A DNA stretch of 64,000 nucleotides from an uncultured Candidatus Saccharibacteria bacterium (GTDB taxonomy: Bacteria > Patescibacteriota > Doudnabacteria > UBA920), in contig CAZDIP010000002.1 in the NCBI GenBank assembly GCA_964505635.1, positions 37,736 through 101,735 of the forward strand, in the 5' to 3' direction. This document shows, in pieces, positions 1,240-35,777 of this stretch. Position 1 is the stretch's first letter, and each line of letters opens with the position of its first letter. A model generated the notes under the pieces. It had not been told where the DNA came from. It saw nothing but the letters and a program-made list of their open reading frames with translations, and searched no databases. The position numbers were made by a program, and so were the translations under genes.

Positions 1240-1240
1240 A

Positions 1241-6076: not shown

Positions 6077-6117
6077 AAGTGATAATACTATTATCACTCA
6101 AAGCTGTCAAGTGATAA
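6077..6117. promoter_or_regulatory. CIRCE-like operator: TTATCACTC-N9-AAGTGATAA (6091-6117) plus an extra AAGTGATAA half-site (6077-6085), immediately upstream of the hrcA start
   Basis: Compare canonical CIRCE TTAGCACTC-N9-GAGTGCTAA; each half-site differs at 1-2 positions and the 9-nt spacer is conserved. Confidence 0.5.
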
Positions 6118-6163
6118 CCCCATCTAACTAAAAAAATTAAATGTAAAGTATACTTGACATTAA

Positions 6164-6192
6164 AAAATATCTGTCATATTATTGTCCTATTA
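6164..6192 (+). promoter_or_regulatory. Sigma-70-like promoter (TTGACA-17nt-TATTAT) for the thioredoxin-like gene
   Basis: -35 at 6164-6169, -10 at 6187-6192, 17-nt spacer, about 45 nt upstream of the ATG at 6236. Confidence 0.45.
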
Positions 6193-6235
6193 AGACTTAT
6201 TAGTCCTAAGCAGGACAACAAAGGAAACAAACACT

Positions 6236-6847
6236 ATGAACAAAACTATTTGGATAATTCTTGCCGCGGTTATAATACTTGGCGGCGGGATAGCGCTTTA
6301 TGCCAATCAAAATTCAGGCAACAAGACTCAAACTAAAAATGACGTCATGATGCAAGATGACAGCGCTATGCAAAAAAAAGATGATGCTATGGTGAAAGAA
6401 GAAGGAATGATGGACAAAAAAGACGAAAGCATGATGGAAAACAAAGACTCAATGACAAAAGATGAAAGTGCGATGATGAAAGAAGATGATAAAATGTCCC
6501 CTAAAGCGGGATCCGCCTCCGGCGAAATGGAAGCAAAACCAGGACTTTACACAGACTACTCCTCCTCAAAACTTGCCGAAGCCAGCGCAAACGGCAAAGC
6601 TGTATTGTTCTTTTGGGCTAGCTGGTGCCCCTTTTGCAAAGCCGCCAACGAAGCGTTTTTGTCCCGCGCCTCAGAAATCCCTTCCGGCGTAACCGTGCTT
6701 AAAACCAACTATGATACGGAAAAAGATCTTAAAGCCAAATACGGCGTAACTTACCAGCATACTTTTGTGCAAGTGGATGCACAAGGCAATATGCTTAGCA
6801 AATGGAACGGCGGGGACATTGATTCGCTAAAAGCGAATTTAAAATAA
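6236..6847 (+). CDS. Membrane-anchored thioredoxin-like protein with Met/Asp/Lys-rich low-complexity linker
   Basis: 203 aa; N-terminal transmembrane helix; linker MMQDDSAMQKKDDAMVKEEGMMDKKDESMMENKD...; thioredoxin fold with WCPFC active site. Confidence 0.8.
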   Translation: MNKTIWIILAAVIILGGGIALYANQNSGNKTQTKNDVMMQDDSAMQKKDDAMVKEEGMMDKKDESMMENKDSMTKDESAMMKEDDKMSPKAGSASGEMEAKPGLYTDYSSSKLAEASANGKAVLFFWASWCPFCKAANEAFLSRASEIPSGVTVLKTNYDTEKDLKAKYGVTYQHTFVQVDAQGNMLSKWNGGDIDSLKANLK

Positions 6848-9529: not shown

Positions 9530-11500
9530 TTAATTTTTCACTCTTTTCAAAGACATGTAAATTACGCCGAACAATAAAATTAAAACCCCAGGATAAATAA
9601 TCATTCTAAAATCCCGGGATTTTTGTATTTGTCCTGCATTTAAATTTGAATAACTCTCCGACAAATCCGAATTTTGTTTATCTGTTTGGCTTAAAGCTAA
9701 AATTTGAGTCTGTAAATCCGCCAAAACAGATTGCATCTCCAAAATTTTTGCCTGTAAATCTTTTACCTGATTAATCAACTGACCAGCTTGACTGCGACTC
9801 AAAATTGACTGGCTCTTGTCAGTGTTTGTTATATTTTCTTCTAACAAAGCCTTTTCCTCTTCATCGGTAGTGGCAGACAAAACCAACGCATTTGGCTCTT
9901 GTGGGGTCAGCTGGGTTGTCCAAGCATATTTTTCACCGTCCAGACTAGCATACGACATGCCGGCTTTGGCCACCGGATAGCTCACCTCAAAAACCAATCG
10001 GCCAAAAGCATCAAATAACTTCAAAGTTTGTCCGGCATTGCTTAAACGAGCAGGCAAGTCATCTTCATAAACGACAAAGTAAGCTTTGCCCGGCAAAATT
10101 GTGCCTTGATGAAAAACTTTTTTCCTCCCGCCCAAAGTTAGGGTCATACCTTCCAAATCTATATTTTGATCAGTCAGATTATAAAATTCCACAAATTCTT
10201 CCTGTTCGCCTTCAGGTCTCGGCAAAATTTCACTAATTACTATTTTGCTTATTTCAGAAACTTGATCGTTCGGCAAATTGCGAGTCGGAATGCCCCAACT
10301 CCACTTATTATCTTTATTTTTTATCCAGGACAAATTTTCTTCGGCATCTTCATAAATTACAGAATCCAGCATTTTTTTCTGCGGAGAAAAAAGTTTCAGC
10401 CTTTCCTGTCCGCTGTTATTTAAAATTAGAGACTCTTTAGGGAAGTCTATTGCCAAAACTCCCATTGGCGGGATCAAAAAGCCTTCCGGCACCGCCCATG
10501 CGGATTCAGTAAAATCATCTTTAATGCCATCGGCAAAATAATACCCGCTTAAAGTTACCGTCGCGTAACCGGGATTATAAACTTCCGCCCATTCCCTGCC
10601 CTGGTCTTCGCCCAAAGGATTGGGAAAAATTTCGTTAATTTGCAAAAAATTACTGCTTTGTAAAGTTTCGGGTGCAGAACCGCTAAAGGAAGACCCGCCA
10701 CCCCCGCCGGAATTGGAAAAATTTCTTATCGGAGGCTGCCAAACTCCGTTAACCAGCTCAAAAATCCCGTCATCATAAGCTTCGGCCAAATACGCCGCCT
10801 GGTCTGCAAGGCTGCTGTCTGAAAAATATAAATTAACTTCATCACCGCCAGTATTGTTCAAAGCAAATGCCTCGGCGGGTAAAATAATTTTTTTAGTCTC
10901 TCCCGGCAAAATACTGCCTGACAAAATATAGGCGCTGCTGCCCGGCCCTGTGCCGGTATTTTTGTCGTCAATAATCCAGCCGTTTAGCAGCACCGGTTTT
11001 TCTTCGCTGCTTTTTATTTCCACCCATTCATTACCTTCATCTGATCCGGTTGGATTGGGTAAAAATCTAAAAATTTTAATATTCATACTTGTTGTTAAAA
11101 ATTCAGGCTGAGCCGGAACCGATGCATTAATGGTAAAAACTCCTTCATTTAAGTCGGAATAGCAAAAACTTTTTCTGGCTGTTCCCAAAGCCATGGTCAA
11201 TACCGGATTTTCCAACAAACTCCCGCAGGGAGCTGTAGCCGGAGAAGAATAAAACTGTCCGCTTACAGAAGACGAAAGCAAACTGACCCGGGTGGTGGTA
11301 ACTGCATTGAATTTCAGACCTTCGTCAGTCTGCAATTCTACGGTAAACACCTCCGACATAGTTTCAGGTTTTACTTTTTGAGGCTCAGATATAATTTTTA
11401 TCTTTACAGCCTCCGTTGTCTGGGTCGTAAAATAAATCGCCGCAAACGCAAAGAAAACCAAAAGCCCGCGCATTTTGGAAATATCCTTTTTAATATTCAT
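9530..11500 (-). CDS. Secreted, C-terminally membrane-anchored surface protein with three lamin-tail domains (LTD)
   Basis: 656 aa; signal peptide; LTD signatures FLPNPTGSDEGNEWVEI, INEIFPNPLGEDQGREWAEVYN, ISEILPRPEGEQEEFVEFYN; coiled-coil; C-terminal transmembrane helix. Confidence 0.75.
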   Translation of the reverse strand: MNIKKDISKMRGLLVFFAFAAIYFTTQTTEAVKIKIISEPQKVKPETMSEVFTVELQTDEGLKFNAVTTTRVSLLSSSVSGQFYSSPATAPCGSLLENPVLTMALGTARKSFCYSDLNEGVFTINASVPAQPEFLTTSMNIKIFRFLPNPTGSDEGNEWVEIKSSEEKPVLLNGWIIDDKNTGTGPGSSAYILSGSILPGETKKIILPAEAFALNNTGGDEVNLYFSDSSLADQAAYLAEAYDDGIFELVNGVWQPPIRNFSNSGGGGGSSFSGSAPETLQSSNFLQINEIFPNPLGEDQGREWAEVYNPGYATVTLSGYYFADGIKDDFTESAWAVPEGFLIPPMGVLAIDFPKESLILNNSGQERLKLFSPQKKMLDSVIYEDAEENLSWIKNKDNKWSWGIPTRNLPNDQVSEISKIVISEILPRPEGEQEEFVEFYNLTDQNIDLEGMTLTLGGRKKVFHQGTILPGKAYFVVYEDDLPARLSNAGQTLKLFDAFGRLVFEVSYPVAKAGMSYASLDGEKYAWTTQLTPQEPNALVLSATTDEEEKALLEENITNTDKSQSILSRSQAGQLINQVKDLQAKILEMQSVLADLQTQILALSQTDKQNSDLSESYSNLNAGQIQKSRDFRMIIYPGVLILLFGVIYMSLKRVKN

Positions 11501-11573
11501 ATGTTTTTTGTTTCTTGCTAAGTAAGCTAACTATAAATAGTATGGCTCTAAAATCATGGTCGGTCAAATCAAA

Positions 11574-12161
11574 TTATTCCAAAAGCTCTGCCCTTACAAT
11601 ATAACGTTTCAATGCAGTTCCCAAAGGCCAGGAAGTCTGCAAAGTTAAAATTTTCTTATCTTCCGTATCCTGACTAAGTAAGTAAGTATCTTGCGAGGAA
11701 GCAATAAATTTTTCCTTAACTTCATAAGTAAAAATTTGCCCCGATTCGCTGCTTACAATAATTTTTGCGCCCAATTCTACTCTGGGCAAAAGCGCAAAAA
11801 CCGTCTTGTATTCGCCGGGCGAAACTTTTAAATCCGAGGAGTGGCCGAAAATATAGGAATTTCCGGTTTCACCAAACTTGGCGGTGTTCGGATAGTGTAC
11901 CACGCCATACCTTAAGGCCGATTGAAACAAATTTTCATTTACCGCATCTACATATACCACGGGTGCCTCTATGCCCAAGGTTGGTATTAAAAGACTGTTG
12001 GATAAAATTTTATCTTTTTCTGAAAGTAAAATTTCCGGCTTGAGACTATGCGGTCGCAAACTATGTTTTAAATTCAAAAATACAAATTGCCAGTTGAGTA
12101 ACAGAACCAGCAAAATTAAAAAGCCAAAGATTATAACAAGTTTTTTTAAAACTACCTTCAT
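11574..12161 (-). CDS. Sortase-family protein with Ser at the catalytic Cys position (TLQTSWP instead of TLxTC)
   Basis: 195 aa; transmembrane anchor; sortase His motif NSYIFGHSS, 70 residues later LTLQTSWP (codon TCC), then KRYIVRAEL (conserved Arg); LIPTLGIEAPVV β-strand typical of sortases. Confidence 0.65.
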   Translation of the reverse strand: MKVVLKKLVIIFGFLILLVLLLNWQFVFLNLKHSLRPHSLKPEILLSEKDKILSNSLLIPTLGIEAPVVYVDAVNENLFQSALRYGVVHYPNTAKFGETGNSYIFGHSSDLKVSPGEYKTVFALLPRVELGAKIIVSSESGQIFTYEVKEKFIASSQDTYLLSQDTEDKKILTLQTSWPLGTALKRYIVRAELLE

Positions 12162-12193
12162 TAAATCCCTTTCAATTACAGCACAGGCAGTTT

Positions 12194-13741
12194 CTAAAGT
12201 TTGCTGTTAAATTTATATGGTAAATTTACCATTAAAATAACAACTAAAAAAACTACTAGCAGGGCACCTGCGCTCACGCCGGTTCTGGGCAATTGCGTAG
12301 CCTGGCCTAACACCATAGGCTTGTTTTCCGGCAAACCGAAATTTGCCGCGCCCGGTTGGTTGGTAAAATCTCCTGCCACCTGTCCGCTTAGCGGCACAAA
12401 AGTACTGCCGCCGCTCCCCCCAGACCCTCCGCCGCCGGATCCGCCGCCGCCCTCATCTAAGCTGCTCGTGCAAATCTGTCCTTGGGGACAAACAACCTGA
12501 ATTTGAACGCCAGATGTATTATTGGACAAATTCGGATCAGCCTCGGCTGACTGAACTGTAGCCGTATTTACAATACTGGTTCCAACTGAGACACTACTTT
12601 TAACTTCGGCCAAAATGGTTAAACTTGCGCTGCTCCCACTTGCCAAATTGCCGACTGTCCAGACATTGGGAACAAAACCACCTTGTGTGGAAGTGGAAGA
12701 AATAAACAAAAGTTCTGGGGGTAATACATCTGTCATTATTACGTTTTCTGCTGTATTAGGACCACTGTTAGACACGCTAAAAGTATAAATTAAAGTTGAG
12801 CTGGCTGTGCTAGTAGGAGCGCTGACCGTTTTCAACAAACTTAGATCAGCTACACCACCGCTCCCACCGCCGCCAGACGAACACTCCCCGTCCGTACACC
12901 CGCCTGACCCTTCCACAAAACGATTGCCAAAATTTATATCTTCGGCTGTAAAATTGTCAACAAAAACTTCATATTTATAGCCTGCTCCGGCTCCTGGTAA
13001 AGTCTGCTGCCAATTGTTCTGCAAAACTTCCCGTACTGTGTAATTTCCAGCCGGCAAAAATTCAAACTCGTAAAATCCAGTGGTGGTGGCAGTGGTGGTA
13101 ATTTTTTCTCCAAAATCATAAATAGCATTGCTGTTCTGGTCAATGTAGATTTGCCAGCCGCCAAGGCCTATTTCCGAGTTATTTTTTACGCCGTCGCCGT
13201 TTAAATCGTTAAACTTAATGCCCTGTATAAAACCCTCGCCAAAAACTTCCACCGTATTGGTCGTAACTGTAATTTTGCACTCATAATCCCCGCCCTTAAC
13301 CACTATGCCGCCGTCATGAGCCTGGGCCAGCTGCCCGGAAATTCCAGGCACATTTAACTTTACCCGCCAGTTATCCGCATTATCTAAAATAGAACTTAAA
13401 CTTGAAGTGGCCAGTGTGTCAGGCTCATTGGGCAAATCAATGTTTTTTATTTCCAAAAACGGACATAAATTCTCTTTACCTCCGACTGCCTCTAAGACGG
13501 TGTTATAAGTCGCTTGCTTAGAAGAAGTATCCAGCTGGACAGTATATGTTCTGCTTAAATTCTCACCCGGGTAAACGTTGCCAAAAGGAATCGCGGTGTC
13601 TGAAACCAAAAGCACCTGCAAAGCCGCGTTAACTTTCAAAATATTGCTCTGCAGCAGGCTTAAAACTGCTATCAAAACAACACTGGCAATTGCTGCCGAC
13701 AGCTTAACCAAATATTTAGTTTTCATATTTAACTGTCTCAT
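12194..13741 (-). CDS. Cell-surface protein with LPRTG sorting signal, DUF11 and SdrD-B-like repeat domains and Gly/Ser linkers
   Basis: 515 aa; N-terminal signal; FGNVYPGENL TasA/camelysin-like motif; DUF11-like (NSGPNTAENVIMTDVLP); SdrD B-like (FNDLNGDGVKN); C-terminus TQLPRTGVSAGALLVVFLVVIL + KFNSKL. Confidence 0.75.
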   Translation of the reverse strand: MRQLNMKTKYLVKLSAAIASVVLIAVLSLLQSNILKVNAALQVLLVSDTAIPFGNVYPGENLSRTYTVQLDTSSKQATYNTVLEAVGGKENLCPFLEIKNIDLPNEPDTLATSSLSSILDNADNWRVKLNVPGISGQLAQAHDGGIVVKGGDYECKITVTTNTVEVFGEGFIQGIKFNDLNGDGVKNNSEIGLGGWQIYIDQNSNAIYDFGEKITTTATTTGFYEFEFLPAGNYTVREVLQNNWQQTLPGAGAGYKYEVFVDNFTAEDINFGNRFVEGSGGCTDGECSSGGGGSGGVADLSLLKTVSAPTSTASSTLIYTFSVSNSGPNTAENVIMTDVLPPELLFISSTSTQGGFVPNVWTVGNLASGSSASLTILAEVKSSVSVGTSIVNTATVQSAEADPNLSNNTSGVQIQVVCPQGQICTSSLDEGGGGSGGGGSGGSGGSTFVPLSGQVAGDFTNQPGAANFGLPENKPMVLGQATQLPRTGVSAGALLVVFLVVILMVNLPYKFNSKL

Positions 13742-13744
13742 AAT

Positions 13745-16582
13745 CTAGTTGGAAATTGGCGCTTCCGAAACCAACTGGTTGTCGGGGTTTTGTTCCGGCT
13801 CTTTTGCCGCGGAAACCTCGTCCAGGGGTTTTTCTGGAGACTCTTCTATTTTAACCGGCTCATCCGGTTTGGGCGCTTTAGGTGTGTTTGGCTCCTCCTC
13901 GGTTAAGGCTGGTTTTTGAGCGTCTTGTGTTAAATCAGAAGCAACGGTTTCTTCATCTGCCGCCTTTGTGTCAATAATTTCTGGCTCAGCCGGCTCTGTA
14001 GCTGGCTCTTGGTTTAAAGCCGGCTCTAAACTTATGTCAGGCACAGCGCTTGCCATAACCTCTTCTTCCGAAGGCTCAGAGTCAAACACAATGCTGACGC
14101 TGGGCGCGGTATTTGAATCTATAAATTCGTCGTTGCTTTCCCCGGGGCTGGGATCGGGGTCTATCCAATTATTTGTTCCGTCAGGCATGCGGGTAAAAGA
14201 TTTGTTATCAGGCACGGATGCGCCGTAGTCGTAAGTTCTTTGGTCCACCAAAGAAGCTCCTTGCCAAAAATGTCCGTTGTAAAGCTTAACGGTATCGGTA
14301 CCGTCGTTGTCTAAATCAAAATCAGTGTCGCCCTCCCGATAAACAACCAAAAAACCGCCAGGTGCCACAGTTGTCGTGCCGGTATTGGTGTTTTCGGGTT
14401 TAATAAACAACTCATGGTAATTGTACAGGTTATAAGTAGCGCTTAAGCTGTCCAAACGCGCGTTATGCAAAGCGTCAGCACGAGTAAAAATAGCCTGCCA
14501 TTTTAAATACCTGCTATCCGGCAAGCCGGCAGCATTTAAATCCATGCCGCTTATATCGTCGCAAGCGCTAAAAGCGGAAAAATTCACCCCGTCGTTGGAG
14601 GTTGCGGCCTGAATGCAGACGTTACCGCTTAGGGAATTGCTTTCCGTCCAGGTTAAATTCTGCCAGTCAGCCCGATTGCCCTCGCCCGCGTCCAAAACCG
14701 TTTCTAAAGTACCGCTGCCAACCCCGCTTGAAAAAACCACGCTGCTTGAGCTGATTCCCAAATTAGAGGTTAAGCTGCTGCTCGCAAAATCCGAGTTGCT
14801 GGTCCAGGTTTTATTTTGTGCACTTCCCGGAGGTAGAAAATCATCGTACAAAACATAACCTTCCAAACTGAGCGGAGTGGAAGATCCATTATAAATTTCT
14901 ACAAATTCACCATCTAAACTGCCGCCAACACTACCTTGATCTGAGCCTGAAGGATTAGGTAAAAATTCATTTATCAACAACTGGTTTAAAGGGGAAAATA
15001 CCGGGCCGCAAGAAATAACTGAAGGTAATGGCCTGAAATTTACGGTCACGTTGCTGTCTAAGTCAATTGCGGGGCCGGTTAACGAAGTGCCTTCTTTTGC
15101 ATAAATTGCCAAAAGCGTACGGTTGGAATTAATATGCACATCCCCGCTTTGAGCGAAAAGTACCACGTCCCCAAGGTCAGAATTATTGCTTTCTGTTTCA
15201 ATGGCTGCGTCGTCGCCCGATTTGGGCAAAGAAGTGGAAATGAGCAAAAAAGTCCCTTTAGTGCCCGCGCCGTTAAATGCCACGTTGGCGCGGATGTCAA
15301 TTACCCCCTCCACAATAATTACGCCAAAGCTGTCGGCAAAAGCAGGATCCTGATTTATAACCACGTTGCTGTCTATTTTTAGATTACCATGCACATACAA
15401 AGTACCGTGCACATTTACTATATTATTGTTGCCAATTTCCAGGTTTCCCATAATTTCCGAAGGTCCCAAGTCTATAATTCCGCTGCTGCCTGGTATAACC
15501 AAACTTCCTAAAACCGTACCGCCGTCGTTGGCTTTGTCCTGCCAAAAAGCATTGTTAATTACCGGCAAGTCCTGGGCGGCTGACCCTGTGTTCGCACTCC
15601 CCGAAATAGTAAAGTTGCTGCTTTCTATGCTGCCGGAAACCGTCACGTCCCCGTTTATGTTTCGGTTTGCGCCTCCTCCGTTGGCTTCTAAATTATGATT
15701 GCCTTTTACTTGCCCGTTCACCGTAACATTAGCGGAAACATAAATATCGCCAAAGCTGTCGTTTGGTCCCGCAGCCATTAATGCTGTGTTTTCCGGGAAA
15801 TCAATATTTATTGGCTCGCACAAATCCGCCTGGGCAAACTGGTAAATTTTTATGTTAATCAGGCTAAAATGGCTGCCCACGCTGTCGCCGTCACAAGCCA
15901 CAGCCTTAACCACGCTGGTTTGGCTTACGGGCAAAGGCGGAATGGAATTTTTAAGGCCGCCGTTAGGGCCGCCGCAGTAAGGGTCGGAAAATACGTCCGG
16001 ATCAGTGCCTAAACCAACTGTATAAAAAATATGCGTGGCGTCTGAATCGCTGTCGCTAAATTCCACGTTAATGGAACTTGCGTAATTACCGCCGTCAGTA
16101 TTGTTCCAGCCAATATCCCCGGGCGGGGTTAAAACCGGCGGATCTATTTGCGCTAACGCGGCAGTGGTATTAATAATGTGCGCCTCAAAAGCCTGGAACA
16201 AAGGCAATAAAACCAAAACCGGAATTAATACCACGGCGGTATTATAAACGGTTTTAGATAAAAACTTTTTGAACAATGGTGGTTTTACCGTATTGGCCTG
16301 CGGCTTTAGTCCGTGGCGTTCGAAAATTTCCGCTTTTAAAACAGCCTCATTTACCACCCGCACCGGCACCCTCACTGCTTTTGGTTTTACTCTGCTAATT
16401 ACAAAGGGACTTACAATGCTTTTGTTATTTTTTGTCCTTACAATCTTTTTTACCACAGGCTTACCAACAAAAGTTTTTAAAGCCGCTGATTTTCGCTTTG
16501 CGGTCTTTGCCCGCGCCAAAACCAGACTTTTTTTCAAAGTCCTTGTTTTAACAACTTTTAATTGTTTGTCTTTTGCGGGCAT
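13745..16582 (-). CDS. Giant surface protein (945 aa): Lys-rich N-terminal tail, SipW-cognate-like signal/anchor, β-helix-like repeats, LTD domain, acidic Pro/Glu-rich C-terminus
   Basis: N-terminal roughly 100 aa Lys/Ala-rich; hydrophobic segment with FQAFEAHIINTTAALAQI (matching AFSAFEAHVINVTAR of the neighbouring genes); LTD motif INEFLPNPSGSDQG...EFVEIYN. Confidence 0.7.
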   Translation of the reverse strand: MPAKDKQLKVVKTRTLKKSLVLARAKTAKRKSAALKTFVGKPVVKKIVRTKNNKSIVSPFVISRVKPKAVRVPVRVVNEAVLKAEIFERHGLKPQANTVKPPLFKKFLSKTVYNTAVVLIPVLVLLPLFQAFEAHIINTTAALAQIDPPVLTPPGDIGWNNTDGGNYASSINVEFSDSDSDATHIFYTVGLGTDPDVFSDPYCGGPNGGLKNSIPPLPVSQTSVVKAVACDGDSVGSHFSLINIKIYQFAQADLCEPINIDFPENTALMAAGPNDSFGDIYVSANVTVNGQVKGNHNLEANGGGANRNINGDVTVSGSIESSNFTISGSANTGSAAQDLPVINNAFWQDKANDGGTVLGSLVIPGSSGIIDLGPSEIMGNLEIGNNNIVNVHGTLYVHGNLKIDSNVVINQDPAFADSFGVIIVEGVIDIRANVAFNGAGTKGTFLLISTSLPKSGDDAAIETESNNSDLGDVVLFAQSGDVHINSNRTLLAIYAKEGTSLTGPAIDLDSNVTVNFRPLPSVISCGPVFSPLNQLLINEFLPNPSGSDQGSVGGSLDGEFVEIYNGSSTPLSLEGYVLYDDFLPPGSAQNKTWTSNSDFASSSLTSNLGISSSSVVFSSGVGSGTLETVLDAGEGNRADWQNLTWTESNSLSGNVCIQAATSNDGVNFSAFSACDDISGMDLNAAGLPDSRYLKWQAIFTRADALHNARLDSLSATYNLYNYHELFIKPENTNTGTTTVAPGGFLVVYREGDTDFDLDNDGTDTVKLYNGHFWQGASLVDQRTYDYGASVPDNKSFTRMPDGTNNWIDPDPSPGESNDEFIDSNTAPSVSIVFDSEPSEEEVMASAVPDISLEPALNQEPATEPAEPEIIDTKAADEETVASDLTQDAQKPALTEEEPNTPKAPKPDEPVKIEESPEKPLDEVSAAKEPEQNPDNQLVSEAPISN

Positions 16583-16591
16583 GTAATAAAA

Positions 16592-17035
16592 TTATTTTTC
16601 TATATTTTGCAGTTTGGGCCCGAGGCTTCTGGCAATAACTCCGAAAAACGGAATTCTGAAAGGTTTGTCTTTTATGTAAACCATCCGTCCAACCACGTCT
16701 TTCGGGTTTACAGGCGCGTCTTCGGAATTGTTGGCGTCTCCTTTGGTAATCAGCATGCTGCCCTGTCTCCTTATAAGCCTGTGAATAGTAAAGCCCTGAG
16801 CGTTTTTATAAATAATTATTTGCCCCACTTTCGCTTCTTCTCCGCTTATGCCTTTCATTAAAATTAAGTCGTTGACTTTCAGCTGCGGCCACATGGAACC
16901 GGAAGTAATGGTGGCCAAAGGGTATGGAGTTTTTAAATAATGCGACAAAATTTTCGGGGTGTAATAAACAGCCAAACCGACAAATGCCAAATAAATAATA
17001 ATTTTTAAAACTCCTATCGCGATCTTTTGTAACAT
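16592..17035 (-). CDS. Type I signal peptidase, SipW/archaeal-ER type (S26B)
   Basis: 147 aa; transmembrane helix then ITSGSMWPQL (catalytic Ser in SGSMxP), conserved His in FTIHRLI, GDANNSED box; short single-domain form typical of SipW. Confidence 0.85.
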   Translation of the reverse strand: MLQKIAIGVLKIIIYLAFVGLAVYYTPKILSHYLKTPYPLATITSGSMWPQLKVNDLILMKGISGEEAKVGQIIIYKNAQGFTIHRLIRRQGSMLITKGDANNSEDAPVNPKDVVGRMVYIKDKPFRIPFFGVIARSLGPKLQNIEK

Positions 17036-17068
17036 TTGCTTATGAACGGGATTAAAAATTTTTAATTT

Positions 17069-17587
17069 CTACCATGGCTTGGGAATTTGGAAAACTATAA
17101 CTTTACCCCGATAGTAGCGGTATTCGGCAGAATTGGGAGTGCGGACAGTAAACTCCAGCTTTTCTCCCTGCCCGGATTTTAGCGTAAAATAATTTTTATC
17201 AACTTTCATTAAATCGCCAATCTCGCCGAATTTCCATACCATAATGTAACTGGAAACTTTGTACGGGCTTTGGTTGACCAAACTGACCGTCCTAACCGCG
17301 GTTTTGTCTTTGGGCAAGTCCCCAAAATCCAAACGCTCGCCGGTAGGGTTAACCCCTATTTTATCCGAATCAACCACCTGCACCAAAGCATCGTATTTTT
17401 CCGCGTTAACATACTGCACGGCCAGAAAAATAAACGCCAAAACCAGAATTATCCAAGCGGCCACGCGTTTTTTTGGCCTGGGTCTGGTTATCTCAGATTT
17501 TAATTCCGACAAAAATCCCCGCTGTTGCTCCCTTTCCATAACAGCCTTAGGCTTCATATGGCTGGGCATGTTTTCAAATGGATCCAT
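17069..17587 (-). CDS. Type II membrane-anchored accessory protein (hypothetical), immediately upstream of sipW-like
   Basis: 172 aa; cytoplasmic N-terminus, one transmembrane helix, about 110-aa extracytoplasmic β-rich domain; position analogous to TapA in tapA-sipW-tasA. Confidence 0.45.
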   Translation of the reverse strand: MDPFENMPSHMKPKAVMEREQQRGFLSELKSEITRPRPKKRVAAWIILVLAFIFLAVQYVNAEKYDALVQVVDSDKIGVNPTGERLDFGDLPKDKTAVRTVSLVNQSPYKVSSYIMVWKFGEIGDLMKVDKNYFTLKSGQGEKLEFTVRTPNSAEYRYYRGKVIVFQIPKPW

Positions 17588-17689
17588 AAATTTATATTGT
17601 TAAATAAAATTTGAAATTATTTGACAGGGTTAGCGTGCTTTCATCCCTCATCCCTGGCCCCAAAACAGGGCCAAAGGAAGCTATGAAAG

Positions 17690-19126
17690 CTAATTATTCT
17701 CGCAAACTGCCAAGCTGGCCAGTACGCTTTGCAGCAAAGTAAAGTCTGACGCGCTGTAGTAGTAAGAGGGCGCTGAGGCAACGGTGTTTTTTAAGAAGTC
17801 TTCAGTGCCCGCGGTTACGCCTACCCCGACCACATAAATCTTAATGCCGGCTGCTTTGGCCGCGGCGGCTGCCGCAGCTGCGTCGCCGCCCGCTGTGGGC
17901 TGGCCGTCGGTAATTAAGACTATAAAGTCAGGCGAGGTCGCGTCGTTACGGTCGCGCGCGCTCGCTAATTCAGCCGAGGCTGTATCCAAAGCCTGTTGCA
18001 AATTGGTCAAGCCGCCGGCTAAAAGAGCGTCTATGGCTGTATGAAGCGGCGTAGAAGAGCCGGTTAACTGCACGTCCAAAGTCGCGTCAGTGGAAAAACT
18101 GACCTGTGCGCCGTGAGGGCCAGTGTCGCTTAAACCCAAAGCCGTGACAAAGGCGTGAGCCGCTGTCTTCATGGTATTAAGTTCGGTGTCGCTTATGCTG
18201 CCGCTACGGTCTATAACCAAAGCTAAATCCAGCTGGTCGCTGCAAAGACCGCCGCCGGGCAAAGAAATGCCGGCCACTTCCACCCACAAATCACAGCCAA
18301 ACACTTTGTGTTCATTTTCTATAGGCTGGGTAAAAGCATTAGCCTGTTCCAAGGTGGTGTCTAAATTGCCGGTTTCCCTGCGGACAAAGTCCAGCCAGTC
18401 CTGGGCGCAATAGCCGCCAAAGCATGGTACGGCCAAATCTATCACCCACTTGTCCTGCGTATCCTGGTCTTGTTTGGACAAACGCCCCTTAGTGTCCAGC
18501 CAGGAAACCGTGCTGGTTCCCACCACAAAAGGCGTGTGGAAAGACTTGGTTACTTGGTCTACGGAAAGAGGTCCGTCTATATCCAGTTTTTCCCCGTCTT
18601 TGGAAATGTAGGGGCACAAGTTAGGCAGCAAACCCCAGCTTTCTGCTTCGTTTATATTAACTGTCTGAGTGTCGTCTACAGCTAAAACTCTGGGCGCTTC
18701 CCCGCAATCCCAGTAATAGCTTTCAACCACTTCGTTAGTGGAAGGGTCATCGCCGAATTTTACATGCGCGGTGCGCGTGTACATATGCGCGCCGTCCGGA
18801 CCTACTGAGTTGTCAAACGAACCGCCGTTGTTGGTGGTTATGGCGCACTTGGGTTTTTGGCGGATAAAGTATTCCACGTCGTCTACGCGGTTTTCCGCGA
18901 GGAAAGACGCGGACAAATTCACGTCAATGGTTTTTTCCAAATGCTCCTGCGGAAACACGGTGCCAAAATCCAAAAACTTGACCGGCACGTTAAGCGCGTT
19001 TTCTATCCTGGCCGTTACGTTTATAACGTGCGCTTCAAAAGCGCTGAAGGCCGCGGCGCCGGCGAGTATAACACCCAAAGTCCCGACGCCCAATATTAAT
19101 TTGTTGAGTATTTTTTTCATGTTCAA
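17690..19126 (-). CDS. Secreted vWA-domain protein with SipW-cognate-like signal peptide and Cys-containing N-domain
   Basis: 478 aa; LGVILAGAAAFSAFEAHVINVTARIENAL; FGTVFPQEHL motif; N-domain shared with the 19339-20181 paralogue; C-terminal vWA with MIDAS DRSGSIS and ITDGQPT. Confidence 0.8.
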   Translation of the reverse strand: MNMKKILNKLILGVGTLGVILAGAAAFSAFEAHVINVTARIENALNVPVKFLDFGTVFPQEHLEKTIDVNLSASFLAENRVDDVEYFIRQKPKCAITTNNGGSFDNSVGPDGAHMYTRTAHVKFGDDPSTNEVVESYYWDCGEAPRVLAVDDTQTVNINEAESWGLLPNLCPYISKDGEKLDIDGPLSVDQVTKSFHTPFVVGTSTVSWLDTKGRLSKQDQDTQDKWVIDLAVPCFGGYCAQDWLDFVRRETGNLDTTLEQANAFTQPIENEHKVFGCDLWVEVAGISLPGGGLCSDQLDLALVIDRSGSISDTELNTMKTAAHAFVTALGLSDTGPHGAQVSFSTDATLDVQLTGSSTPLHTAIDALLAGGLTNLQQALDTASAELASARDRNDATSPDFIVLITDGQPTAGGDAAAAAAAAKAAGIKIYVVGVGVTAGTEDFLKNTVASAPSYYYSASDFTLLQSVLASLAVCENN

Positions 19127-19167
19127 TCTTTTAAATAATTTACTTTTCTTAATTTTCCTTTCTTTCC

Positions 19168-19195
19168 CACTATATTACTAGATAGTAATATAGTG
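19168..19195. repeat. 28-bp perfect palindrome CACTATATTACTAGATAGTAATATAGTG (copy 1 of 3)
   Basis: 13-bp inverted arms with a 2-nt spacer; identical copies at 23796-23823 and 24318-24345; lies about 45 bp upstream of the vWA gene start. Confidence 0.9.
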
Positions 19196-19338
19196 TCGAC
19201 CTTTGCCCGGTTAAGCCGGATTTTTTACTTTACATTCAGCCTCCTAATATAAATGTCACCTTGCATAAAATTAATCCCTCTTTCCCTCGCCCCTCCTTTC
19301 CCTTAAAAAGGAAGAGCGAGGTATAAGAAAAATTAATC

Positions 19339-20181
19339 TTATTCTGCTGTGGGGGTGCTAGTTACACCATTTACTTCTACCCACAAATCACAGCCAAAAA
19401 TTTTGTGTTCGTTCTCTATTGGCTGAGTATATTCAGACGGATTAGCTTCCGGATTAACACCTTTTACAAAGTTTTCCCAATCCTGAGCGCAGTAGCCGCC
19501 AAAGCACGGCACAGCCAGGTCTATTACCCAGTTGTCAGTTGTGTCATTTGGTTTAGACACAGTTCCGCCGACATCTGTCCAATCAATTGTCTGATTTTGT
19601 GCATCCAATACCCAAGGTTTATGGAAAGACGCCAATGCTCCATCTTCGTAAGTTAAAGGTTCTCTGGAAACAATTTCAGAATGCTTGGACAAATACGGGC
19701 AAAGATTTGGTAAAACACCCCAAACCGCCTGAGAAAGTTCAGCATTTTCAGTTGGGGTTACAGGTCTTGTACCGCAATCAACATAGACATTATCTGCCTG
19801 TTCAACTGTTTCTGTGGCTGGATTATCACCAAACTTTATATGACCTGTCGCAGTGTATTCATGTCCATAAAAAGTCTGTCCATCCGGGCTGGTCAAAGCA
19901 CATTTTGGCTTTTGGCGGATAAAATAACTTACCGTGTCAACTCGATTTTGGTCATCAGCCAAAAACGAACCTGACAAAGTCACAGCTAAAGGCTTTTCCA
20001 GTTTTTCCTGCGGAAAAACCGTGCCGAATTCTATAAAATCAATCGGCACATTCAAAGCATTTTCTATCCTGGCCGTTACGTTTATAACGTGCGCTTCAAA
20101 AGCGCTGAAGGCCGCGGCGCCGGCGACTATTACGCCCAAGGTACCTAGCGAAAGTGTAATTCTATTTAGTATTTTTTTCAT
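19339..20181 (-). CDS. Secreted paralogue of the vWA protein N-domain (SipW-cognate-like signal, no vWA domain)
   Basis: 280 aa; N-terminal about 60 aa nearly identical to the 17690-19126 product; conserved YFIRQKPKCA, VPCFGGYCAQDW, TQPIENEHKIFGCDLWVEV. Confidence 0.7.
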   Translation of the reverse strand: MKKILNRITLSLGTLGVIVAGAAAFSAFEAHVINVTARIENALNVPIDFIEFGTVFPQEKLEKPLAVTLSGSFLADDQNRVDTVSYFIRQKPKCALTSPDGQTFYGHEYTATGHIKFGDNPATETVEQADNVYVDCGTRPVTPTENAELSQAVWGVLPNLCPYLSKHSEIVSREPLTYEDGALASFHKPWVLDAQNQTIDWTDVGGTVSKPNDTTDNWVIDLAVPCFGGYCAQDWENFVKGVNPEANPSEYTQPIENEHKIFGCDLWVEVNGVTSTPTAE

Positions 20182-20699
20182 AGTTATTCCCTCCGCATAA
20201 ACATTTTACAAATGCTAAATGTTTATGGGATTAATTATTTTTTCTTTTACTTTAATGTTCGGTGCCCAAAAATTGGAACTATTGCGCCCCCCTCTTGGAA
20301 GCACATCCCCTTGCTCCCAAGATGGGGGCCTGGGAACATTAAAATTATGCATTACTGCCGCTTGGCGGCCTCGACCTTTTTAATGCATGCCCTTTCCCAT
20401 AAAGATTTAAAATTTATGGTTTATGGAAAAAAGCGCAAATTAAAAAACCAAGCTAAAAGCTTGGGTCCTACATAGGGCTCAGGTTGTGTTTTAAACAATG
20501 TCCCTGAATTGGTTTCATAAGTTTTGTTTTGGTAAATAAAAAAGTCATTTTTTTCAAAATGGCCCGGAAATGACTATAAAATTTTGTTTTTATTATCCAC
20601 TACCAGTATAGTCAGCCATTTATTCAAACGCAAGTCAATTTTTTCCCTTAATTTTAAGGCGCTATGTGGATAATCTGTTGAGTATAAAGAGGTTTAATT

Positions 20700-20744
20700 G
20701 GGGAAAAACAGCCTGCTGCTTCCCTGCCTAAAAACAGCAGGCTG
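20700..20744 (-). terminator. Rho-independent terminator (10-bp stem CAGCCTGCTG/CAGCAGGCTG + T-run on the minus strand)
   Basis: Lies downstream of the minus-strand PEP-CTERM gene 20963-21529. Confidence 0.6.
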
Positions 20745-20962
20745 CCAAAACCCGAGAATTAGCTCTAAAAACCGTAAATACTAGTTATTTTCTTCATTAC
20801 TGTTACAATTAATCCTATTTAATAAATCGTTTAATGCTTGCATGCATTATATAACGCGTAATAAATAAAAATGTTGCTCTTAAATTTTTATGTACAAAGA
20901 AAAGCGGCCCACACCCCCGAAAGGATGTGAGCCGCCGCCGTGTTCGCCCGGTTAGGGGCGCT

Positions 20963-21529
20963 TTAGGCTTGGTTGTTGCGATTGCTGCGAAGTCGCCCGA
21001 TCGCGATCAGCGAGAGGCCGATGAAGGCGAGCGCGGCGGTGTAGGGTTCAGGAACATCTTGATCTGGTACCCTATCGCCATACAAACGAAACTGCATGTT
21101 CGCGTTGGCGTTGGTTGCAGTACCAGCAAAAACAGCCGAAACCGCAACATTGAAGTTGCTTTGGAAATTGGCCACATAGTCAACCACCGAGATGGCGATT
21201 TGACCTGTTGATCCGTTGAGCGGCCGGTTCACATCGTTGACCACGAGACCGCTCAAATCCCACGGCAGCAATGGCGAATCCAGAGCGAAGGTCGCTGACC
21301 CGGGCGGATTGAAGGGGTCATATGTCACATCCAACGCGTAGTTGAGCTCAATGGTCAAATTCGTAAACCCGACCGCTGAACCCAGCCCGGTGCAAGTCGT
21401 TGAACCATTCGGAGGCACGTTGGTAGCTGTGCAGGAAGACGACGAGATCATCGCTCCTTGCGCCGGAAGAGCAAGTGTCGCGACGGCCATGAGAAGGCCC
21501 GCGAGAAACGAACACACTTTCTTACGCAA
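20963..21529 (-). CDS. PEP-CTERM sorting-domain secreted protein (GC-rich)
   Basis: 188 aa; signal peptide; C-terminus VPEPYTAALAFIGLSLIAIGRLRSNRNNQA (PEP motif, transmembrane helix, basic tail); about 60% GC. Confidence 0.75.
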   Translation of the reverse strand: MRKKVCSFLAGLLMAVATLALPAQGAMISSSSCTATNVPPNGSTTCTGLGSAVGFTNLTIELNYALDVTYDPFNPPGSATFALDSPLLPWDLSGLVVNDVNRPLNGSTGQIAISVVDYVANFQSNFNVAVSAVFAGTATNANANMQFRLYGDRVPDQDVPEPYTAALAFIGLSLIAIGRLRSNRNNQA

Positions 21530-21630
21530 TCTTTTTTCCTCTTATATTTTTTTCACGAGCAAGCCATCAGCCTGCCCGACGAAACTTTGACCTAAGGGCA
21601 TGGATATCCATGTCTGCCCTCAAATCAAAA

Positions 21631-21660
21631 CAGTCGCCCGAAGGCGGCTGTTTTTGTTTG
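21631..21660. terminator. Bidirectional hairpin terminator (CAGTCGCC-CGAA-GGCGGCTG + T-run)
   Basis: Stem-loop flanked by A-runs and T-runs between the two minus-strand PEP-CTERM genes. Confidence 0.55.
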
Positions 21661-21859
21661 CGTATACATACTATAATATATTTTTTTAAAAAAAGCAAGT
21701 AGTTTGTATAAATTTTTATGGCTTATTTATGCCTTTTTAAAGGCTCACATGGACTGAGCCTTTAAAAAATCCAAAAAAAATAAAAGCAGCTCCCTAGAAT
21801 CCTTTGTCAGGACCTAAGGAGCCGCAGAGTGCGCTAGTCTGCCTTCTTGTTAGAAGACG

Positions 21860-22555
21860 CTAGCTATTACGGGTAGGGCGACGGAGCCGCCAGTGGGCTC
21901 CAAGAGCGAAAAGTGAAGCGCCGATAACGGCGAAAGTGCCGGGCTCCGGCACACCTTCGTCGTTTGGGGGTGGCACGGTGGCCACCACCGGCTGAGTTCC
22001 AAACCCCAGCGCCACGTACGTCAAAGTCGTGTCCACCGTTGCGCCTGGGATATTGTAAACCAACTGAACTGAGCCCTGAGCGAACGGGTTATGAGGCCCG
22101 TTCCCCAAAATGGATGCATTCCCGGTGTACACGCCGCCCGGGCCGGGTTGACCAATGAGCACATCGTCCGGTCCCGAAGACCCAAGCGCGGTCGTGAGAA
22201 ACCCAGGCCCGGACTGGTACCAGTCCGGATTTCCCAAGACAACGACGAAGGTGCCATCGCTGGCTACGTCTATCATGGTACCAGTGACAGACGAGAGCGT
22301 GCCCACCAGGCCGCCCAAGACCGTGAAGTTCAGTTGCGAAACGCCGCCCATGACGCTGGGCGGATCAGCCAAGTTGTTCGTCAACGACAACGTCAACGTG
22401 TTCGCGCTGAACGTGTAGTTGATTGTCACGTCCTGCGCCTGCCCACCGACCGTTTGGGTGAAGTTGATCGTTGCCGCCTGTGCCGGCAAAGACGCCAGCA
22501 ACAGGAAGACGATGATTACGGCCATCGCCAGCCGCTTGCCCTTATGCTTTCGCAT
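21860..22555 (-). CDS. PEP-CTERM sorting-domain secreted protein (GC-rich)
   Basis: 231 aa; signal peptide MRKHKGKRLAMAVIIVFLLLASLPAQA; C-terminus VPEPGTFAVIGASLFALGAHWRLRRPTRNS. Confidence 0.75.
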   Translation of the reverse strand: MRKHKGKRLAMAVIIVFLLLASLPAQAATINFTQTVGGQAQDVTINYTFSANTLTLSLTNNLADPPSVMGGVSQLNFTVLGGLVGTLSSVTGTMIDVASDGTFVVVLGNPDWYQSGPGFLTTALGSSGPDDVLIGQPGPGGVYTGNASILGNGPHNPFAQGSVQLVYNIPGATVDTTLTYVALGFGTQPVVATVPPPNDEGVPEPGTFAVIGASLFALGAHWRLRRPTRNS

Positions 22556-22852
22556 TAGGCCTCCTTCAAACTAACACGATTTGCCGCTTGCCTCCGGGCA
22601 GACTCGAGTTCTGCATACCCTGCCCAGAAGGCAAACAAAAGCTGCCTCTTGTTAGAAAACAGCCTTAAAGCATGTAAATTATACATAATTATAAACAAAA
22701 AATCAATCCTTGCCTTGACTAAGCGGCTCACATAAGTTACAATATAACGTTCAAAAAGGAGGAAACTAGCGAAATCTAGGAACTCGTTTTTGTCGTTCTG
22801 CCCCGCAGCGAGCAGGGCATACCAGAAACCAGAAAAAACAGGAGACACTCAA

Positions 22853-23686
22853 ATGAAGGCTTTTGCCTTTTTTATTTCTGTACTCGCGCTGGCGGTCACG
22901 CTCAGTGCTGCGCCTACAATCATGGTGGAAACCACCCTGGCACCCAATGCGTTTGGAAGCCCAAGCTATCCGGCCTGGGAAACCAACGCGGTCAACGCTA
23001 TGATTGGCGGCCTTACGAGCAATGGGACACCCGGCACCCCCACGTACTTCCAAACCCTGGGAGGACCCGTTCCGGCCTCCTGGTTGACTGTGACGTCCTT
23101 CCCATCCTGGCTCGGAACCGCCGACCCAGGAACTACCTTCGGACCGGCATTTGCAAGTGAACTCGGTAACAGAGGCGCGTTCCCACTCTACATCAACGGC
23201 AACGGAACACAATTCTCCATCAGCCAGCTCGCCTTCAACGCATTCAGCACCGACCCCGGCAATCTGCTCGGGTTCAGCTTTGCGGTTGGTTCGTACAACT
23301 ACGGAACTGGCTACGTCGGTATTCTGAAGGGTGGTGACAACACCCTCGGAACCGGTGACGACACCTTCATTACCGCCGGTCCCAATACGCAGATGGTCGA
23401 TGCACTTGCCGGAAGGGGAAGCGGCAACGCGCTCTGGCCGTGTGGACCGGGGGATCTCTCCCCCTGCGCCACAACCGCGGAACGCCAAGCTGCAATCGAT
23501 AGCATGGCAGCTAATATGGCAGGCTACTCCTTCACGGGCACCTACACGCTGATGGGTGCGACTGGCGGCGAGCTCGCAAGTGCGAGCGCAACCATCTACA
23601 CCGACGGAGAGGTTCCCGAGCCAGCCACTATGGGACTCATCGGTACCGCGCTCATCGGCCTCGCTCTGGTGCGCCGCCGCTCCTAA
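22853..23686 (+). CDS. PEP-CTERM sorting-domain secreted protein (GC-rich); start set at MKAFAFF, which is preceded by AGGAG
   Basis: Signal peptide MKAFAFFISVLALAVTLSAAP; C-terminus VPEPATMGLIGTALIGLALVRRRS; the ORF track's longer ORF begins at 22790. Confidence 0.75.
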   Translation: MKAFAFFISVLALAVTLSAAPTIMVETTLAPNAFGSPSYPAWETNAVNAMIGGLTSNGTPGTPTYFQTLGGPVPASWLTVTSFPSWLGTADPGTTFGPAFASELGNRGAFPLYINGNGTQFSISQLAFNAFSTDPGNLLGFSFAVGSYNYGTGYVGILKGGDNTLGTGDDTFITAGPNTQMVDALAGRGSGNALWPCGPGDLSPCATTAERQAAIDSMAANMAGYSFTGTYTLMGATGGELASASATIYTDGEVPEPATMGLIGTALIGLALVRRRS

Positions 23687-23795
23687 GCTGCATCAACGGA
23701 GATTTCGCTCAACCAACACAAAAGGCCGGACGCCCAACAAGCGCCCGGCCTTTTTACAACAAACAACACACAAAGAACAAAGCCACCCTTTCCCC

Positions 23796-23823
23796 CACTA
23801 TATTACTAGATAGTAATATAGTG
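23796..23823. repeat. 28-bp perfect palindrome (copy 2 of 3), abutting the stop codon of the YerC-like gene
   Basis: Identical to 19168-19195. Confidence 0.9.
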
Positions 23824-24315
23824 CTATTGATCCAACATCTTCTTTGCCGAATTTTCCGAATATTTTTTTAAAAGCTTTTTGTCCAAAGCTGCTATCCCCG
23901 CCTTTAACAAAACGCCGGCTACTGTCTTACGCTTCGTTTTGTTTAAAACTGGATTTTCAAAACTCTTTATAATTTCTCTTTGCTTTTTTAACTTAGCTCC
24001 GGCTAAACGTTCTAGGCTTTCATAAGCCTTACGTAGACCGTCGCCTTTTTCCATTAGAATATTATTAATTTTAGCGACTGTGCTGGGTGTAACTTTTACT
24101 TCTTGTTGAATTTGTTCGTAACTCTGGCCGCTTAAAAGCCTGTGGGAAATTTCCAAACGTTTAGCGAACATTTTATATTCCGTATGAGTAAATAAATCCT
24201 TAAACAACAACCTAATATCTTCTTTACTGTTTAATACAGTAAAAACCGCCCATAAATTGTTTATATACAGGCCAAATTCTTTGGGATCCAATTTTCTCCT
24301 GGAAATTTTTGTCAT
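23824..24315 (-). CDS. TrpR/YerC/YecD-like DNA-binding protein with C-terminal extension
   Basis: 163 aa; LFKDLFTHTEYKMFAKRLEISHRLLSGQSYEQIQQEVKVTPSTVAKINNIL matches the Trp-repressor-like YerC/YecD helix-turn-helix pattern; ORF bracketed within 1-2 nt by palindrome copies 2 and 3. Confidence 0.6.
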   Translation of the reverse strand: MTKISRRKLDPKEFGLYINNLWAVFTVLNSKEDIRLLFKDLFTHTEYKMFAKRLEISHRLLSGQSYEQIQQEVKVTPSTVAKINNILMEKGDGLRKAYESLERLAGAKLKKQREIIKSFENPVLNKTKRKTVAGVLLKAGIAALDKKLLKKYSENSAKKMLDQ

Positions 24316-24317: not shown

Positions 24318-24345
24318 CACTATATTACTAGATAGTAATATAGTG
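24318..24345. repeat. 28-bp perfect palindrome (copy 3 of 3), 2 nt upstream of the YerC-like start codon
   Basis: Identical to 19168-19195. Confidence 0.9.
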
Positions 24346-35191: not shown

Positions 35192-35515
35192 ATGCCAAGT
35201 TGGGCAACGCAGTTTTTGGAAATTCATTTCCAGAAGCCCTGCGAAGCAGTACTTCTGGAACAACAAACACCAGATGTCTGGTGTGGATTAAATATCTGTC
35301 ACACTCGGCCTCACAGACACCATAACATTCTTATCTTGTTGGTTTATGGTGGTACATTTGACCCTTCCACAATACCTCCCTCAGTGACCATAATAAAAAA
35401 AGTAGAATTCAAGCAAAACGGTCACCTACCGAATTTTGAATGGCCTGACTGGAAACATAGTCAGCTACAAAAACCAGTCATTCTATTTGAAAGGAATTCA
35501 CATGCAAGAACTTGA
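35192..35515 (+). CDS. Hypothetical protein (His/Cys-containing, 107 aa)
   Basis: ORF preceded by AGGAGG-like GAAAGGAGG; no recognisable family. Confidence 0.3.
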   Translation: MPSWATQFLEIHFQKPCEAVLLEQQTPDVWCGLNICHTRPHRHHNILILLVYGGTFDPSTIPPSVTIIKKVEFKQNGHLPNFEWPDWKHSQLQKPVILFERNSHART

Positions 35516-35777
35516 GTTCGTGTATGAATTTCAAAAGCCAGAAGAAGCGCAGGCCGCGCTCGGCCACCTCTCGTGGCTGCAGTTTAACGGACACAACGTG
35601 TCCGGCTGCGCCGAAAACGGCTCTTCCGTCACCATCACGGTCTGGTTTCGCCGCCACGACCCAGATCAAGTAGAAGAGCTCCGCAACGAGCTCGGCGCCT
35701 TAAGCGCCACCCCCGCCCAACCGACGCAAAACGACGATCGCCCCCAAGCGACCGCCGTTTTCATTTTGTTTACTTAA
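35502..35777 (+). CDS. Hypothetical small protein, GC-rich (about 60%)
   Basis: 91 aa starting MQELEFVYEF; strong GC shift relative to neighbours; overlaps the 3' end of the upstream ORF. Confidence 0.3.
   Translation: MQELEFVYEFQKPEEAQAALGHLSWLQFNGHNVSGCAENGSSVTITVWFRRHDPDQVEELRNELGALSATPAQPTQNDDRPQATAVFILFT

Follow-up and report, generated by a model that had tools for sequence, protein, structure and literature searches.

How does a bacterium whose envelope genes are of a single-membrane type come to carry three adjacent genes for proteins with PEP-CTERM tails, written in a codon usage that is not its own? This question is raised by a locus on contig CAZDIP010000002.1, of which a stretch of 64,000 nucleotides (the window in the following) was analyzed; we refer to the three genes as pep1, pep2 and pep3. 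All window proteins that were tested map to a single NCBI contig of 235,345 bp. The 120 best database matches of the DnaK protein encoded in the window are 83-94% identical to it; all named organisms among these are Patescibacteria, several of them Candidatus Doudnabacteria. As judged by DnaK, the host is a bacterium of the Patescibacteria (Candidate Phyla Radiation; CPR) close to Candidatus Doudnabacteria. CPR cells possess no outer membrane. The PEP-CTERM tail has been described as occurring only in bacteria that have both membranes, genes for exopolysaccharides (EPS), and EpsH, with a median of 8 PEP-CTERM proteins per genome (Haft et al., 2006; PMC1569441); the window contains three in 64 kb, all of them adjacent. 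We consider it probable that the locus is a genuine part of a Doudnabacteria-like CPR genome that encodes three separately transcribed, exported beta-sandwich surface proteins, acquired horizontally long ago and held in the membrane by their PEP-CTERM tails.

All three predicted proteins end in VPEP, followed by a hydrophobic helix and a cluster of Arg residues at the C-terminal end. The open reading frames (ORFs) and tails quoted in the initial annotation proved to be real: in a six-frame search with a regular expression (PEP, 14-24 uncharged residues, and a basic cluster), pep1-pep3 were the sole matching ORFs of the window, while shuffled sequence yielded a mean of 0.01 matches. Profile searches concur. 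Against PF07589 (cut-off 20.7 bits), pep3 passes with 28.7 bits, and pep2 (20.1) and pep1 (18.9) fall just under; pep3 alone passes TIGR02595 (24.9 bits). By the possession of the tail, pep1-pep3 all belong to the PEP-CTERM domain class on sequence grounds; of a functioning exosortase system they are no more than candidate members. The locus is composed of the following elements, for which GC3 denotes the GC content of third codon positions.

20379-20707, minus strand: conserved non-coding flank with a promoter-like site (TTGACT-17-TATACT) and two terminator-like hairpins
20903-20936, minus strand: terminator-like hairpin 3' of pep1, 15-bp stem with 9 GC pairs, then a T tract
20963-21529, minus strand: pep1, signal-peptide protein of 188 amino acids, tail VPEPYTAALAFIGLSLIAIGRLRS; GC 0.55, GC3 0.63
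21530-21859: spacer 1, AT-rich, 39% GC
21602-21729, minus strand: block in spacer 1, sigma70-like promoter TTGCTT-17-TATAGT and, within about 10 nt, a strong hairpin with a U tract
21860-22555, minus strand: pep2, signal-peptide protein of 231 amino acids, tail VPEPGTFAVIGASLFALGAHWRLRR; GC 0.60, GC3 0.73
22556-22852: spacer 2, AT-rich, 43% GC, containing the promoter-like sites of pep2 and pep3 in back-to-back arrangement
22706..22678, minus strand: promoter-like site on the pep2 side of spacer 2, TTGATT-17-TATAAT
22715..22743, plus strand: promoter-like site on the pep3 side of spacer 2, TTGACT-17-TACAAT
22853-23686, plus strand: pep3, signal-peptide protein of 277 amino acids, tail VPEPATMGLIGTALIGLALVRRRS; GC 0.60, GC3 0.67
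23720-23754, plus strand: terminator hairpin 3' of pep3, 16-bp stem with 9 GC pairs, TTTTT thereafter

The scan for terminators assigned the last of these hairpins to the minus strand, but the same hairpin precedes TTTTT on the plus strand. Ribosome-binding sites (GGAGG / AGGAG) are present 5' of the pep2 and pep3 starts, the ATG of pep3 being preceded by AGGAG. The promoter-hairpin block of spacer 1 is 77% identical to positions 952-1089 of a related contig (L063, described below), where a different gene lies downstream; it may represent a leader/attenuator or a bidirectional terminator.

The initial annotation had described the locus as a GC-rich island of about 2.9 kb and about 60% GC, bounded by abrupt steps in base composition near 20890 and 23760. 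The region 20890-23760 possesses 54.9% GC, compared to 42.7% in the remaining window, and is the GC-richest among all 2871-nt windows of the 64 kb (+3.5 standard deviations). The steps are real in the GC scan; at about 20900 and 23760 they coincide with the two terminator hairpins (20903-20936 and 23720-23754), which are themselves rich in GC. High GC is confined to the pep coding sequences (56-60%), while the two spacers are AT-rich, so that the island is discontinuous and its mean lies below the value first proposed. The excess is located at synonymous sites: the GC3 of pep1, pep2 and pep3 exceeds the 0.49-0.51 expected for these proteins with the codon usage of the host, whose GC3 is 0.43 ± 0.06 (37 host genes). 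For Phe, Ile, Leu, Lys and Tyr, the pep genes prefer the opposite codons (TTC, ATC, CTC/CTG, AAG, TAC) to those favored by the host (TTT, ATT, TTA/TTG, AAA, TAT). Translational selection as the cause of the high GC3 was rejected, since the codon preferences of the pep genes do not correlate significantly with those of the host rps/ssb/efp/dnaK/grpE set (r = 0.18), and amino-acid composition accounts for only about +0.07 GC3.

Could the locus be an artifact of assembly, as the initial annotation had considered, or of contamination? The abrupt composition steps would be expected from a chimera, and the AT-rich spacers are where independently assembled Logan contigs end, none of them extending to a flanking CPR gene. 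Three such contigs from two sequencing runs (L006, 20618-21774; L005, 21680-22758; L001, 22737-23808) are 100% identical to the window and together tile 20618-23808; L006 contains pep1, L001 contains pep3, and in each of the three, a single GC-rich coding sequence is flanked on either side by AT-rich DNA. The genes with their flanks are thus reproduced by independent assemblies; L063, moreover, physically connects a pep2 ortholog with the CPR genes hrcA-grpE-dnaK, and the same pattern recurs across many unrelated assemblies (see below). Because the GC-to-AT transitions lie within single contigs and because of the L063 linkage, we rejected a chimeric assembly; the probability that we leave to an artifact is very close to nil.

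L063 is a 5.1-kb contig of a related CPR bacterium from another sample, and its comparison with the window informs on the age of the locus. Its order is: pep2 ortholog, a spacer of 33% GC, a PEP-CTERM gene for 251 amino acids, a non-coding stretch, and hrcA-grpE-x-dnaK. Nucleotide identity to the window amounts to 71% for hrcA, about 70% for grpE and 83% for dnaK. The pep2 ortholog (GC 0.55, GC3 0.61) is 75% identical to pep2 at the amino-acid level in a codon alignment; the gene for the 251-residue protein (GC3 0.62) is unrelated to pep1, which occupies that place in the window. GC3 of the L063 hrcA-grpE-x-dnaK genes is 0.27-0.38. The flank at 20379-20707 (about 330 nt) is 67% identical to L063 positions 1993-2306, between the PEP-CTERM genes and hrcA, and is thus as conserved as the neighboring genes; an assessment of this flank as a structured RNA gave only sub-threshold Rfam noise and a fold z of -0.72 against shuffles. 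In the window, a 14.3-kb segment of surface-protein genes separates hrcA from the PEP-CTERM locus; L063 lacks it at this place. The shared synteny (pep2 ortholog, conserved spacer and flank, and hrcA-grpE-dnaK) indicates that the locus was present in the common ancestor. At four-fold degenerate sites, the two pep2 orthologs are 33% identical versus 27% expected by composition; since this is near expectation, their synonymous sites are saturated, like those of the host genes (identity at four-fold sites of 19% for grpE, 42% for hrcA and 43% for dnaK). When the synonymous changes in pep2 were polarised, counts too small for a conclusion hinted at AT-ward drift in the L063 lineage and at none in the window lineage.

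The families to which the three proteins belong point to their origin. The pep1 family comprises 12 representative clusters, with a best identity of 52%; each of the 9 members retrieved ends in a PEP-CTERM-like tail. For pep2 we found 17 relatives (best database identity 74%), and all 16 that could be aligned retain a tail of the PEP-CTERM type and a GNGPHNPF motif; in their PEP motif the P and the E are invariant and the second P is almost so. The pep3 family (about 275 amino acids) is the largest, with 289 homologs and a best identity of 63%. Its named members derive from Acidobacteria, Bryobacterales, Caulobacterales, Gammaproteobacteria and Planctomycetia; in such diderm taxa the relatives have host-like GC, and in high-GC hosts the gene tracks the host (GC3 0.61-0.94). 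The homology search proposed for identifying the donor thus led to Acidobacteria, Bryobacterales, Proteobacteria and Planctomycetia. One contig of 65% GC (L065) carries a gene for an Exosortase_EpsH+EpsI protein (728-2197, minus strand) and, 4 kb apart, a pep2 relative of 37% identity (6077-6817, plus strand), together with a gene for a small PEP-CTERM protein and a HisKA/response-regulator pair; the pep2 family is seen here in a canonical setting. The spread of the families among diderms, the exosortase-linked pep2 relative of L065 and the non-host codons indicate a horizontal origin of diderm type. Of the horizontal acquisition from a high-GC diderm donor that had been proposed, the foreign origin therefore holds, and the fresh, contiguous 2.9-kb island does not.

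As read from their sequences, the N-terminal signal peptides consist of a basic start and a hydrophobic core, followed by the sites AQG/A, AQA/A and LSA/A; the predicted models place N-terminal helices at residues 2-12 and 5-20. AlphaFold models pep2 as a beta-sandwich (predicted local distance difference test, pLDDT, 83.5), and the pep3 model (pLDDT 88.6) is an immunoglobulin-like beta-sandwich. We suggest that the pep families stem from outer-membrane bacteria that possess an exosortase and a GC content of about 58-65%, and that they entered the CPR by horizontal transfer that would have been neither recent nor of one block. Each coding sequence is embedded in AT-rich DNA of host-like composition and has a sigma70-type promoter, a ribosome-binding site and a terminator to itself; pep2, at least, would be older than the split of the two divergent relatives. 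The proteins would be exported by the Sec pathway and their signal peptides cleaved. The C-terminal helix and the Arg cluster could then act as a stop-transfer anchor that leaves the ectodomain outside the single membrane, with later cleavage, or none, by an exosortase-type enzyme not seen here. The ectodomain probably would function as an adhesin or as a binder of matrix or glycans, plausibly in contact with neighboring or host cells.

Copies of these genes that stand out from their surroundings by high GC are not restricted to the window. At least ten other low-GC contigs contain them: members of the pep3 family in L008/L011/L016, L010, L017, L026, L027, L032 and L054, with GC3 of 0.57-0.67 versus 0.30-0.53 in neighboring genes, and members of the pep2 family in L063, L067 and L069. 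The L067 copy, which adjoins pilin genes, has a GC3 of 0.60 versus 0.15-0.26 in its neighbors. L064 (61-66% GC), a contig with a short monoderm-type YidC, carries a pep2-family copy with a host-like GC3 of 0.85. The closest relatives of pep2 and pep3 with a readable gene context are located on low-GC contigs, and none of the low-GC copies has ameliorated to the composition of its host. In a rough neighbor-joining tree of pep3, the window copy groups with those of L008, L011 and L010, while other low-GC copies are scattered among high-GC ones, which suggests several transfers. Saturation of synonymous sites together with a retained GC3 implies either that GC is held up (by selection or biased gene conversion) or that cassettes are repeatedly exchanged between conserved flanks. 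Among the low-GC copies, the tail motif is degenerate in two, SVPDKGS in L017 (9995-10855) and TPEIP in P0258 (L069 481-1146), both in lower-GC contexts; selection may be relaxed in these copies, or their tails may belong to a different class. In L008, two adjacent unrelated PEP-CTERM genes (3066-3260 and 4053-4250) share an identical (100%) tail of 81 nt from VPEP to the stop codon, and about 110 nt of their 3' flanks are nearly identical as well: within one low-GC genome, a module consisting of tail and terminator has undergone duplication or conversion.

The statement of the initial annotation that the window encodes no exosortase was borne out for these 64 kb by a survey of transmembrane (TM) segments and Pfam families and by tblastn: the ORFs with at least five predicted TM segments encode only one DsbD_TM and two EamA proteins, and a tblastn search with the L065 EpsH-EpsI exosortase matched neither the window nor any of the other loci retrieved. 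Near the low-GC copies, the many-TM flanking ORFs that we examined represent BacA, YibE/F, ZIP and DUF2339, and the protein with seven TM segments downstream in L026 is TMEM164-like; the many-TM ORF of L064 encodes a Wzy_C protein according to a precomputed match. The literature searched contained no link of PEP-CTERM or exosortase with the CPR.

Several observations weigh against the reading that we prefer, that of an old acquisition with tails acting as membrane anchors. The fold matches of the models are generic, and among the low-GC contigs, assignment to the CPR is secure only for the window, L063 and L007. The exosortase negative covers 64 kb of a 235-kb contig, so that an enzyme elsewhere in the genome is possible. 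If the genes have resided in their hosts for long, their persistent GC3 of 0.57-0.73, compared to 0.30-0.53 in the hosts, is difficult to understand. Furthermore, 14 of about 16 low-GC copies have preserved the PEP motif, orthologs with saturated synonymous sites among them, and the tails of the unrelated L008 genes are identical; a plain membrane anchor would not need the motif, and these two findings hint that something still reads it and leave real room for an unseen sorting enzyme. In that case, an Xrt/Art enzyme encoded elsewhere would cleave the VPEP tail and link the proteins to an envelope lipid or polymer, in the manner of archaeal ArtA, and the CPR bacterium would possess a complete PEP-CTERM/exosortase or archaeosortase-like system. 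The L008 tails resemble the within-genome similarity of tails in true systems (Haft et al., 2006; PMC1569441), and PEP-CTERM genes are clustered at two to three per locus in the window, L008, L063 and L068. Such a system is nevertheless only a possibility in our estimate, given that the 64-kb window contains no exosortase, that the L065 enzyme found no match at other fetched loci, that the many-TM flanking ORFs tested against Pfam belong to other families, that the motif is degenerate in two of the low-GC copies (VPDKGS in L017, TPEIP in P0258), and that the literature searched is silent on the matter.

The composition of the genes bears on how, and how often, they arrived. Uptake of the entire 2.9 kb in a single recent event from a high-GC diderm donor would agree with the top GC of any window of this size, with the foreign codon usage and with the diderm relatives; spacers of 39-43% GC with host-type promoters, genes on both strands, the lack of mobility genes and repeats, best identities of only 63% (pep3), 74% (pep2) and 52% (pep1), and the occurrence of pep2 and its flanks in the divergent relative L063 make it quite improbable, and we rejected a recently acquired genomic island. 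No meaningful direct or inverted repeats and no tRNA or tmRNA genes were found around the pep genes, no integrase-like ORF was recognised among those adjoining the locus, and IMG/VR contained no relatives of the pep3 or pep2 families. An integron-type cassette array was likewise dismissed, as there is no integrase-like neighboring ORF, the genes share no imperfect inverted repeats, and they lie on both strands with their own promoters. Alternatively, the locus could be a recombination hot spot at which cassettes from GC-rich neighbors are repeatedly swapped between conserved AT-rich flanks and have been imported recently. The differing genes between conserved spacer and flank (pep1 with 188 amino acids in the window, the unrelated gene for 251 amino acids in L063) fit this well, as do the duplicated tail-plus-3'-flank module of L008, the scattering of low-GC pep3 copies among high-GC ones in the tree, and a GC3 confined to a narrow band of 0.57-0.67 regardless of host. 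Yet no integrase, att-like repeat, tRNA or phage carriage was found, the pep2 orthologs have diverged as much as the host genes, and the nearest relatives of the window pep3 are also low-GC copies. Among the closer pep2 relatives (39-75% amino-acid identity), four that reside among AT-richer neighbors keep a GC3 of 0.60-0.73, the others being those of L064 (GC-rich host, short YidC) and L068 (host not placed), and the sole exosortase-linked relative is just 37% identical. Recurrent import of this kind strikes us as rather doubtful.

There is also a broader picture, one that we would not yet bet on: PEP-CTERM proteins might recur in the CPR as a module for surface display that selection maintains in a single-membrane envelope, either exosortase-free or served by an unrecognised exosortase- or archaeosortase-like enzyme, with genes drawn from, and perhaps re-exchanged with, GC-rich diderm hosts. 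If true, this would explain the persistent non-host codon usage and would make the proteins candidates for host attachment.

The surroundings of the locus agree with the initial annotation, which had seen in them a sortase/SipW, single-membrane type of envelope. Positions 9530-20181 hold a monoderm-style cluster. Besides a sortase, an LPRTG/DUF11 protein and a SipW-type peptidase, whose coordinates are listed here, it encodes two proteins with lamin-tail domains and two that are TasA-like, of which one contains a VWA domain.

11574-12161: sortase
12194-13741: LPRTG-ended DUF11 protein
16592-17035: SipW/archaeal-type signal peptidase

No EPS locus is present in the 64-kb window, and the host, as a CPR bacterium, would not have the outer membrane that goes with the PEP-CTERM/exosortase system; a TonB_C protein (37995-38768) is a caveat. 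This TonB_C gene (minus strand; Pfam score 56.9 bits; GC 0.54) has a non-host codon signature like that of the pep genes and is 96% conserved and syntenic in the related contig L007 from another sample. The codon preferences of the pep genes match those of four other GC-rich oddities of the window, TonB_C included (r = 0.61, p = 4e-7). GC-rich ORFs without a family match (GC3 0.56-0.65) are found at 46871-47545 (plus strand), 40221-40652 (minus strand) and 35436-35777 (plus strand); the first carries a signal peptide and the second encodes a small membrane protein. They may be further foreign envelope genes.

A near-palindrome of 28 nt, CACTATATTACTAGATAGTAATATAGTG, occurs in three exact copies (19168-19195, 23796-23823 and 24318-24345), where none is expected by chance; the first two bracket a TasA-like gene and the PEP-CTERM locus. 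One copy precedes the TasA-VWA gene by 42 nt, one overlaps a promoter-like site of a TrpR/YerC-like gene (23824-24315), and one follows the stop codon of this gene; of these three, one is located 41 nt beyond the pep3 terminator. The element may serve the TrpR-like regulator as an operator, or it may be a repeat element.

What is new in this locus is the occurrence of clean, syntenic PEP-CTERM genes under purifying selection in a CPR bacterium that also carries monoderm LPXTG/sortase machinery. Together with the similar copies in many low-GC contigs, these genes imply either that the tail has a use independent of exosortase or that the CPR hide an unrecognised sorting enzyme. They provide candidate surface adhesins in organisms whose host-attachment biology is largely obscure, and their donor-like GC3 despite saturated synonymous divergence poses a puzzle about reduced genomes that concerns amelioration, gene exchange or biased gene conversion.

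Among known systems, archaeosortase A and its PGF-CTERM substrates in archaea provide a precedent for a C-terminal tail of similar design that works, together with an enzyme of the exosortase family, in a one-membrane cell and yields lipid-anchored surface proteins; pep1-pep3 differ by their PEP instead of PGF motif, and no archaeosortase homolog was seen here, so that the analogy is a lead only. The LPXTG/sortase system of monoderms has an analogous tail architecture and is present in the same window, but pep1-pep3 carry VPEP instead of LPXTG, and nothing therefore suggests that the sortase handles them. With the floc-forming Zoogloea protein PepA (NF033554), a small, abundant PEP-CTERM matrix protein, pep3 shares a weak match over residues 107-277 (25.6 bits); with a cut-off of 80, this score falls far short of membership, and the function of PepA requires an exosortase and EPS. 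A further counterpart is the EpsH/XrtA PEP-CTERM system of diderm bacteria that produce EPS (PMC1569441). Like its substrates, pep1-pep3 possess the tripartite tail at the extreme C-terminus, signal peptides, ectodomains without known domains, and a clustered arrangement, with pep3 passing both TIGR02595 and PF07589 and the L065 relative lying beside EpsH-EpsI; unlike them, they are encoded by a CPR host with sortase/LPXTG and SipW and with no exosortase within 64 kb. The PEP-CTERM locus described here is thus a known signal, with a persistently foreign base composition, in a new taxonomic and cell-envelope context.

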